Part shown: one piece after another, positions 1,611 to 1,817 of the stretch | How the letters are laid out: every line of letters starts with the position of its first letter | How positions within the stretch are numbered: the first letter of the stretch is position 1 | Source: a virus | Lineage: Duplodnaviria > Heunggongvirae > Uroviricota > Caudoviricetes | Virus record (IMG/VR): IMGVR_UViG_2681813227_000002 | Coordinates: 1-4,546 of that record | Direction: 5' to 3' (one strand) | Length of the DNA: 4,546 nt | Position numbers and translations under genes: made by a program | Notes under the pieces: model-generated | What the model saw: the letters and a program-made list of their open reading frames with translations, nothing else | The model's database searches: none | What the model was told of the DNA's origin: nothing

Positions 1611-1817
1611 GTGGCTGAGTTAATTTTCTCTGCATTGAGGATTCTCGGTGCTATGTGGATGGTGTCGACGTTCATTGCGGTTGTCGGAAGTTTTGTCCGG
1701 TTGGTAGGCGAAGGTAAAGACCTGGTGGGTGTGCTGTTCGGTAGCATTCTCCTGTGGGTGATTATCGGTGTTGCGCCTGTCGCTGTAGCAAAAATGGCGT
1801 GGCGTTTTGTGAGTTGA
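1611..1817 (+). CDS. Small hydrophobic protein, 68 aa, two predicted membrane helices separated by a short charged loop (GEGKD); function unknown
   Basis: GTG start at 1611 lies 8 nt after a GGGGGAGAG Shine-Dalgarno-like run; an alternative in-frame ATG is at 1653. Two long apolar stretches (ILGAMWMVSTFIAVVGSFV and LVGVLFGSILLWVIIGVAPVAV). Codon usage resembles the surrounding backbone. It occupies the gap between tR2 and the next gene, where lambda has ninB. Confidence 0.5.
   Translation: MAELIFSALRILGAMWMVSTFIAVVGSFVRLVGEGKDLVGVLFGSILLWVIIGVAPVAVAKMAWRFVS

Follow-up and report, generated by a model that had tools for sequence, protein, structure and literature searches.

A conserved 68-codon accessory gene behind the tR2 terminator of lambdoid phages, predicted to encode a membrane hairpin

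The window analysed here is a stretch of 4,546 nt (positions 1 to 4,546 of the IMG/VR virus record IMGVR_UViG_2681813227_000002, Caudoviricetes) and covers the early region on the right-hand side of a lambda-like Escherichia coli prophage. An original prediction, made from the letters alone, had placed a 68-aa open reading frame (ORF) for a small two-helix membrane protein at 1611-1817, beginning with GTG directly after the tR2 terminator, and this ORF was found intact with that start. Comparison with related phages indicates that it is a genuine, conserved protein-coding accessory gene of the lambdoid nin region. On balance we favour the overall reading that this accessory gene is expressed from pR and that its product is a membrane hairpin, which would act by contacting a partner within the membrane during lytic growth. 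Public databases already list both gene and family, under the names 'hypothetical protein' and PHROG 1165.

The protein matches phrog_1165 over its full length (E=1.2e-34, residues 1-68 on profile positions 1-68 of 68). The family had been called unidentifiable by eye, which stands insofar as no characterised family matches and is amended by PHROG 1165, a family without an assigned function. The exact 68-aa protein is present on 307 public contigs, labelled 'hypothetical protein', and the family forms 191-236 clusters at 90% identity among 5.8 billion proteins, essentially all from Escherichia or Salmonella and all again 'hypothetical protein'. A wider taxonomic range, suggested by metagenome-assembled genomes named 'Cellvibrionaceae', 'Bacillota' and 'Collinsella', was set aside; these copies share 79-90% identity with the gene of E. 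coli phages and were treated as mis-binned enterobacterial phage contigs. Members of PHROG 1165 include HK022_58, orf70 of Stx2-converting phage 86, mEp235_046, SPN9CC_0027 and the RefSeq entries WP_000229806 and WP_000229807 ('hypothetical protein'); they share the 68-aa length and the position immediately after ninA and tR2, and show no substantive difference from the window protein.

Searching sequenced phages with tblastn revealed three diverged subtypes, all of them in precisely this position. Type A comprises this window, HK022, mEp235, HK75, HK630 and Stx2a-converting phage records; type B (53-56% protein identity) is carried by HK620, HK633, mEp213 and 720R6; and type C (43% protein identity) by Salmonella P22-like phages such as SPN9CC. 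The position after ninA and tR2 is the same in HK022, mEp235, Stx2-86, HK620, SPN9CC, mEp213 and 720R6, and the gene is kept while its flanks vary, with ren, DnaB-type helicases or HNH genes upstream and phrog_343 or ninB downstream. When 1.84 billion representatives were searched exhaustively with a profile, only 13 matches came back, mostly fragments, among which three are true distant relatives (P0130-P0132). These are ~35% identical and without functional annotation, and two of the three, where looked up, sit in early operons of unrelated phages. Among PHROGs, subtypes B and C and the three distant relatives match phrog_1165 only.

Since pN/pS within a type is uninformative, divergent subtypes were needed for a test of coding. 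Subtypes A to C each have 68 codons and align without gaps, at a between-type DNA identity of 57-66%. Between subtypes dN/dS is about 0.23-0.37, with synonymous sites near saturation (pS 0.54-0.70), and pN/pS reached 1 or more in none of 2000 bootstraps. The differences peak at third codon positions (25/18/32 and 29/19/39), and the only frame open in all subtypes is that of the 68-aa ORF. Of 87 related loci, all with the same upstream 40 nt, 85 have this frame open. That the ORF is no gene, and merely a chance reading frame in conserved non-coding DNA 3′ of a terminator, could be argued from the want of functional annotation anywhere, from the HK620 and H-19B records, which leave it unannotated (the HK620 homologue, AF335538, 12378-12584, is intact), and from the poor separation of frames by within-type pN/pS. 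Chance does not readily account for length, start and stop being kept at such divergence without insertions or deletions, for a bootstrap-supported dN/dS below 1 with mostly third-position differences, or for ~35% identical relatives in early operons of unrelated phages. We regard a chance ORF as extremely improbable, and as effectively refuted by these comparative data.

The start codon had been left uncertain, with ATG 1653 as the alternative to GTG 1611; comparison across loci and subtypes now settles it in favour of GTG 1611. All 87 loci read GTG at this position, and in the Salmonella subtype the homologous codon is ATG. Start at ATG 1653, or at Met17, would yield a 54-aa (or 52-aa) protein and leave the first 14 codons untranslated. 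Such a product agrees with the shortened 52-aa form annotated in mEp235 and HK630, with a common 2-bp-deletion allele that keeps exactly the 54-aa ORF intact, and with a GAGGA sequence 12 nt upstream of ATG 1653. It is difficult to reconcile with the replacement of Met15 by Leu (CTG) or Ser (TCG) in several type-A alleles and with the lack of Met at 15 or 17 in subtypes B and C. Codons 2-14 are, moreover, more constrained than the rest of the gene (pN/pS 0.34 vs 0.58), residues 1-14 are kept across subtypes (A8 invariant, R/K10, G13), and the phrog_1165 profile covers all 68 residues. A downstream start is therefore judged very unlikely, and with GTG 1611 as the start the shorter annotations of mEp235 and HK630 stand corrected.

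The signals around the GTG codon are consistent with this start. The ORF begins 16 nt 3′ of the tR2 hairpin and T-tract, and the good ribosome-binding site that had been predicted is the Shine-Dalgarno element GGGGGAGAG, kept as GGGGGAG(A/G)G in nearly all of the 87 loci. The same element precedes every alternative gene found in this slot and serves ninB in lambda. The description of the slot as the one where lambda carries ninB is borne out by the lambda genome (NC_001416), in which ren ends at 40570 and NinB starts at 40644. The terminator itself, AGGCCTGCTGGTAATCGCAGGCCT at 1564-1587 followed by a T-tract, is the lambda tR2 sequence; it was picked up by a terminator scan and is present in the centroid structure of the RNA fold, the HK620 record labels the same sequence 'terminator tR2', and the tR2 33-mer is found in more than 120 IMG/VR contigs.

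The ORF spanning the terminator had been dismissed as a terminator-embedded pseudo-ORF. It is ninA, a gene named in P22, HK620, HK630 and SPN9CC and recognised here by phrog_5907; HK620, HK630 and SPN9CC annotate ninA or NinA at the homologous place ('similar to P22 NinA'). The TGA stop of ren overlaps the ATG of ninA as ATGA. The overlap of the GTG with the end of the upstream ORF, as originally described, is seen in GTGGCTGA, in which the ninA TGA (1616-1618) overlaps codons 2-3 of the 68-aa ORF; subtype C has ATGGTTAA. The initiation site of lambda NinA is experimentally active and 'not weak', and NinA translation reduces tR2 efficiency by only about 10% in lambda (Li et al. 2015, PMC4824070, where Kröger & Hobom 1982 and Liu et al. 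2013 are cited for this site). Tight overlaps of the ATGA type are a recognised hallmark of nin genes (PMC8022706), and descriptions of ninA and of the interlinked nin architecture go back to 1982, as cited in PMC4824070 and PMC8022706. This interlinked feature is present for the 68-aa ORF. Because its GTG overlaps the stop of ninA, whose initiation site is active in lambda, as in nin genes, the overlap argues for the GTG start, and the arrangement at GTGGCTGA would fit the one expected for termination-reinitiation.

A 'ninA' label under the tblastn matches raised the identification of the 68-aa ORF as NinA itself, which was rejected: NinA, as a 27-codon ORF that spans tR2 and matches phrog_5907, fits 1535-1618 and not 1611-1817. 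NinA (P22, HK620, lambda; 27 aa) adjoins and overlaps the 68-aa ORF, and both products are small and hydrophobic; they differ in frame and are unrelated in sequence, and the 68-aa ORF has no nin letter name. Likewise PF05772, which marks the NinB/Orf recombination mediator, was not found in the 68-aa ORF; NinB is encoded by a separate gene further downstream. The ninA peptide (…LITGLLVIAGLFIW…) resembles a single membrane helix and is encoded by the terminator stem and T-tract. Across loci (L005-L178) at least six unrelated genes, ren and DnaB-type helicases among them, end in an overlap with the ninA ATG, and at least eight unrelated genes begin in an overlap with the ninA stop. With varied genes overlapping ninA on both sides, the mosaic joints fall exactly at its two ends, and ninA acts as a universal bridge between mosaic neighbours.

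The two long apolar helices of the original prediction agree with hydropathy, as Kyte-Doolittle 19-residue windows at residues 11-29 (2.03) and 41-59 (2.54) lie above the usual membrane threshold. AlphaFold2, given a 29-sequence alignment, places helices at residues 2-33 and 38-67 with a mean pLDDT of 88.5, and the loop first described as GEGKD corresponds to the tight polar turn E34-D37 that joins them. Across the subtypes A8, W16 and F21 of helix 1 are invariant and position 10 is R or K; in the turn K36 is invariant and G35 and D37 nearly so. Helix 2 and the segment following it contain the invariant residues W49, I52, G53, P56, A60, K61, A63, W64 and F66, and the second half of helix 2 with the AK(M/V)AWxF tail forms the most conserved block. 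The distant relatives P0130-P0132 also keep W49, I52, G53, K61 and W64. The N-terminal segment and the loop each have a net charge of 0 and the C-terminal segment carries +2, a pattern that by the positive-inside rule weakly suggests that both termini are cytoplasmic (N-in/C-in).

Expression was considered from the position and composition of the gene. A consensus scan found no sigma-70-like promoter site on the + strand between 1200 and 2300 (weak or non-sigma-70 promoters could escape such a scan), and promoter-like sites on the minus strand were at chance level (1 found, 1.4 expected). The GC content of the gene is 0.48-0.49, as for its neighbours and unlike that of the AT-rich moron at 2850-4546. 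The features of an autonomous moron, namely its own promoter, its own terminator and atypical composition, were thus looked for and not found in the 68-aa gene. A Rfam scan of the window gave nothing credible. Lying behind tR2 in the repressed pR operon and lacking a promoter of its own, the gene is expected to yield its product only in antiterminated lytic growth.

We accordingly propose the following course of events, in conditional terms throughout. The gene would be transcribed only within the pR delayed-early operon, when antiterminated RNA polymerase passes tR2. Translation would start at GTG 1611 by way of GGGGGAGAG; as the ninA stop overlaps the GTG in GTGGCTGA, ribosomes finishing ninA would probably aid initiation. 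The product, almost wholly hydrophobic over its 68 residues, is predicted to fold into a two-helix hairpin with a 4-residue E/D-G-K-D turn and most likely inserts in the inner membrane, possibly with both its ends in the cytoplasm. On each side fewer than about 10 residues would remain outside the membrane, and helix 2 and the tail are near-invariant, so that the protein would be expected to act only within the membrane or at its surface. The most plausible guess, in our view, is binding to an inner-membrane protein, of the host or of the phage, in the course of lytic growth; the leading candidates for the effect are that such binding might block the entry of DNA from a superinfecting phage or modulate an envelope process. 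The lambda early proteins CIII, which inhibits FtsH, and Kil, which inhibits FtsZ, are precedents for short, dispensable products that bind a host protein at or near the membrane; their genes, by contrast, belong to the pL operon, neither of them is an integral two-helix membrane protein, and they have no sequence relationship to the 68-aa protein.

We think that such a partner-binding role in lytic growth would be likelier than the protein serving as the phage's holin or as a defence expressed in the lysogen. A holin-, pinholin- or antiholin-like protein would time lysis by forming membrane holes or by regulating the phage holin. Its size and two-transmembrane architecture are those of class II holins; the phage 21 pinholin is ~68 aa, and class II holins and pinholins (e.g. 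phage 21 S68) are likewise ~68-70 aa with two helices and the N-in/C-in topology predicted here. Helix 1 of type A is fairly rich in small residues (G13, A14, S19, T20, A23, G26, S27), and noise-level matches to Phage_holin_3_6 occur in 3 of the 29 alignment members (best E=0.6). Set against these similarities, the gene is part of the early nin operon, placed between ninA and ninB and not beside an endolysin in a late lysis cassette, its C-terminal tail has 8 residues (KMAWRFVS, +2) in place of a long charged holin tail, and neither Pfam nor PHROGs gives a significant holin match or any other sequence or profile similarity to class II holins. It is missing from most sampled lambdoid phages bearing tR2 and is thus optional in phages that otherwise lyse normally, and carriers such as HK022 and HK620 presumably have their own lysis cassettes after Q. 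A lysis-timing function is quite unlikely on this evidence.

A membrane-depolarising toxin, of the type I or abortive-infection kind, would form oligomers that collapse the proton-motive force and halt the cell. The small size, extreme hydrophobicity and absence of a soluble domain would suit such a protein, and the recurrent inactivation described below (a 2-bp deletion, the H-19B nonsense codon, a C-terminal frameshift) could reflect a cost of carriage. Type I toxins such as Hok, TisB and Ldr combine a single helix with an overlapping antisense RNA, and neither was found here: two helices are predicted, no antisense RNA or promoter is evident beyond the one minus-strand site at chance level, and Rfam and PADLOC gave no match. 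The gene also lies inside a lytic operon with no antitoxin-like partner conserved alongside it, and we consider a toxin unlikely.

Expression from the prophage to protect the lysogen against superinfection, in the manner of P22 SieA or HK97 gp15, would accord with small inner-membrane proteins being the classic agents of exclusion at DNA entry and with how common the gene is in resident prophages, being present in about 10% of complete E. coli genomes and, among the phage matches, in Stx2a-converting phage records. T4 Imm, HK97 gp15 and P22 SieA are likewise small phage inner-membrane proteins with little soluble mass, and T4 Imm is likewise made early in lytic infection. The exclusion proteins of temperate phages, however, are autonomous morons expressed from the prophage, whereas the 68-aa gene, situated behind tR2 in the pR operon that CI represses, lacks both a promoter and a terminator of its own, has the native base composition and not that of a typical moron such as the AT-rich gene at 2850-4546, and shows no detectable homology to them. 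A search for known defence or exclusion families gave no match in PADLOC or Pfam and no exclusion-annotated PHROG, only unannotated ones. Protection of the lysogen is accordingly an improbable function for the gene.

Beyond the partner-binding role in lytic growth that we favour, the hairpin might found a new class of lytic-phase membrane effectors that bind a specific host inner-membrane machine, a suggestion that we regard as doubtful and put forward only tentatively. Candidate targets would be the DNA-entry route of competing phages, or a protease, division or transport complex, and the hairpin might act jointly with NinA, whose 27 aa are just as hydrophobic and whose translation would be linked to that of the hairpin across tR2.

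Several observations weigh against the reading of a lytic-phase membrane hairpin encoded by a genuine gene. We can only infer a function: no homology to any characterised protein was found in Pfam (nothing at E<=0.1), NCBIfam, PADLOC or the PDB, in which a profile search of the sequences gave 0 matches at E<=10. Foldseek searches with the AlphaFold model had best E values of 0.7 in BFVD and 1.7 in the PDB, all non-significant matches to generic helical hairpins; a two-helix hairpin cannot be discriminated by fold. The topology signal is weak, as the termini exceed the loop by only one K+R in most sequences. A single conserved helix face was not found, 587 of 5000 and 1423 of 5000 shuffles reaching the observed conservation moment, and the claim of a defined interaction surface or stripe was therefore dropped. 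No ribosome profiling or proteomics data on the 68-aa protein were found, and the literature, searched by topic and by accession, yielded nothing. Selection among close type-A alleles is weak (pN/pS 0.52; frame +2 scores 0.40). A 2-bp deletion (TCTC to TC, codons 6-7) that breaks the GTG frame and leaves the 54-aa ORF from ATG 1653 occurs in otherwise identical prophages, on 148 contigs as compared with 307 for the intact exact sequence. The H-19B copy (AF034975, about 8088-8291, unannotated) has a stop at codon 15 and that of phage 146851_sal5 a C-terminal frameshift. These damaged copies indicate that selection for an intact protein is not strong in resident prophages.

The deletion allele is indexed in 257 blocks of the sequence collection, and gene callers then report a 54-aa protein. 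According to the original prediction, absence or frame breakage of the ORF in otherwise near-identical prophages would have told against it; this is what was found in part, with the common frameshift allele and with the lack of the gene in about three quarters of tR2-bearing phages, and the coding evidence across subtypes stands. Because of that evidence we read frameshifts and absence as the loss of a dispensable gene, or as truncation tolerated in one, rather than as the mark of a non-coding ORF. Among the same 29 alignment members, matches at E<=10 to T4SS_pilin (0.015, in 7 members), DUF202 and Phage_holin_3_6 were judged to be compositional noise and were not followed as leads.

The occupancy of the slot was surveyed in 76 IMG/VR contigs with the exact tR2 sequence. 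In ~49% of them ninA is followed first by lambda-type ninB and in ~24% by a member of the 68-aa family, with other small genes making up the remainder, so that the 68-aa gene is missing from about three quarters of the tR2-bearing phages sampled; all genes in the slot overlap the ninA stop. Among complete E. coli genomes, 539 of 5426 have ninA together with the 68-aa ORF, and 1992 match at least part of a query made of ninA/tR2 and the ORF. The survey shows that the 68-aa gene is one of several interchangeable small genes between ninA/tR2 and ninB and that it is dispensable. As a known mosaic hot spot, the position after tR2 holds non-essential small genes that can replace one another. Two unrelated proteins encoded in the slot, MADWQIPIIILSGASLVAGFILLKKH… (108 aa, ~8% of contigs) and MKDLLVTLNVGLSLLGYAYIMF… (90 aa; loci L103 and L124), also have an N-terminal hydrophobic helix, and the slot seems to collect small membrane-anchored accessory genes.

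The window starts in the C-terminal part of O, ori iterons included; at positions 1-100 the lambda-type iteron (…ATCCCTCAAAACGAGGGA…) is present four times, with an A-rich tract after it, all within the O gene, and this is the expected replication origin. Near-identical regions occur in many complete E. coli genomes, in which the PGAP annotation calls the ORF a 68-aa 'hypothetical protein'. The 106-aa ORF that follows it is its commonest downstream neighbour across subtypes, present behind it in most of the loci sampled, and carries the Pfam tag Phage_phiTE_015 in another collection. In HK620, HK630 and RM8385 this phrog_343 ORF is missing and ninB directly follows the 68-aa ORF; its linkage to the 68-aa gene is therefore loose. 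Coordinates of the features are collected in the table.

Table. Features of the 4,546-nt window discussed in the text. Positions are those of the window; codon and residue numbers refer to the 68-aa ORF.
Feature	Position	Strand	Description
P	550-1251		Pfam Phage_lambda_P
ren	1248..1538	+	phrog_142 'Ren-like exclusion protein', E=5e-42; PGAP 'protein ren' in near-identical prophages
ninA	1535..1618	+	27-codon bridging ORF (MTIYITELITGLLVIAGLFIWGRVNRG) containing tR2; phrog_5907, E=1.3e-18
tR2 intrinsic terminator	1564..1597	+	8-bp stem (6 GC pairs), 8-nt loop, then TTTTATTTGG
Shine-Dalgarno of the 68-aa ORF	1596..1604	+	GGGGGAGAG; GGAG core ends 8 nt 5′ of GTG
68-aa ORF	1611..1817	+	GTG start, TGA stop; phrog_1165 member, predicted helical-hairpin membrane protein
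Predicted helix 1 (residues 2-33)	1614..1709	+	AlphaFold2 DSSP; hydrophobic core 11-29 (nt 1641-1697), basic residue 10
Predicted polar turn E34-G-K-D37	1710..1721	+	DSSP loop 34-37
Predicted helix 2 (residues 38-67)	1722..1811	+	AlphaFold2; hydrophobic core ~38-60, then juxtamembrane A-K-M-A-W-R-F tail
106-aa ORF	1835..2155	+	phrog_343, E=4e-30, no assigned function
ninB	2158..2568	+	Pfam NinB PF05772, E=7e-55; the gene in lambda's post-tR2 slot
ninE	2565-2747
AT-rich insert	2850-4546		between ninE and the rest of the nin region

The AT-rich insert has a GC content of 29-40%, as compared with ~50% for the phage backbone. Its minus-strand ORF at 3251-4462 encodes 403 aa within the window, against 590 aa for intact copies (e.g. 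WP_000612803, strain 13E0767); it matches phrog_9230 and nothing in Pfam, NCBIfam or PADLOC, and looks like a moron without an assigned function. Just past its 3′ end, at 3154-3221, lies a strong inverted repeat (GTATGCGAC…GTCGCATAC), which is probably the terminator of this gene; a Rfam microRNA match to the repeat (E=0.024, far under the gathering score) was discarded as spurious. The last ~24 nt of the window, 4523-4546 (TGAACCGCCCCGGAAATCCTGGAG), are foreign to the moron gene, and homology with intact copies ends at 4523. Sites matching the last 32 nt (4515-4546) number 27,827 across 3,584 E. coli genomes and lie beside unrelated genes, which indicates that the window ends in the terminal repeat of a multicopy insertion sequence that interrupts the 590-aa gene. 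We take this repeat to resemble an IS3-family end of the IS629/IS1203 type.

Taken together, this analysis adds to the existing database entries a firm start codon, the union of three subtypes and a few distant relatives in a single family that shares a conserved helix-2/C-terminal block, and a list of annotations that are missing or shortened (HK620, H-19B, mEp235 and HK630). It is in annotation that these results are of practical use. The finding is an ordinary one, a widespread, uncharacterised and non-essential small membrane protein that will not surprise a lambda specialist. The family is nonetheless found in ~10% of complete E. coli genomes, in many Stx2a-converting phage records and in Salmonella P22-like phages, and small phage membrane proteins have repeatedly been found to control DNA entry, lysis timing and host envelope functions. 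If the hairpin did prove to found a class of lytic-phase membrane effectors, about a tenth of complete E. coli genomes, and Stx2a-converting phage records as well, would carry a function not recognised before.

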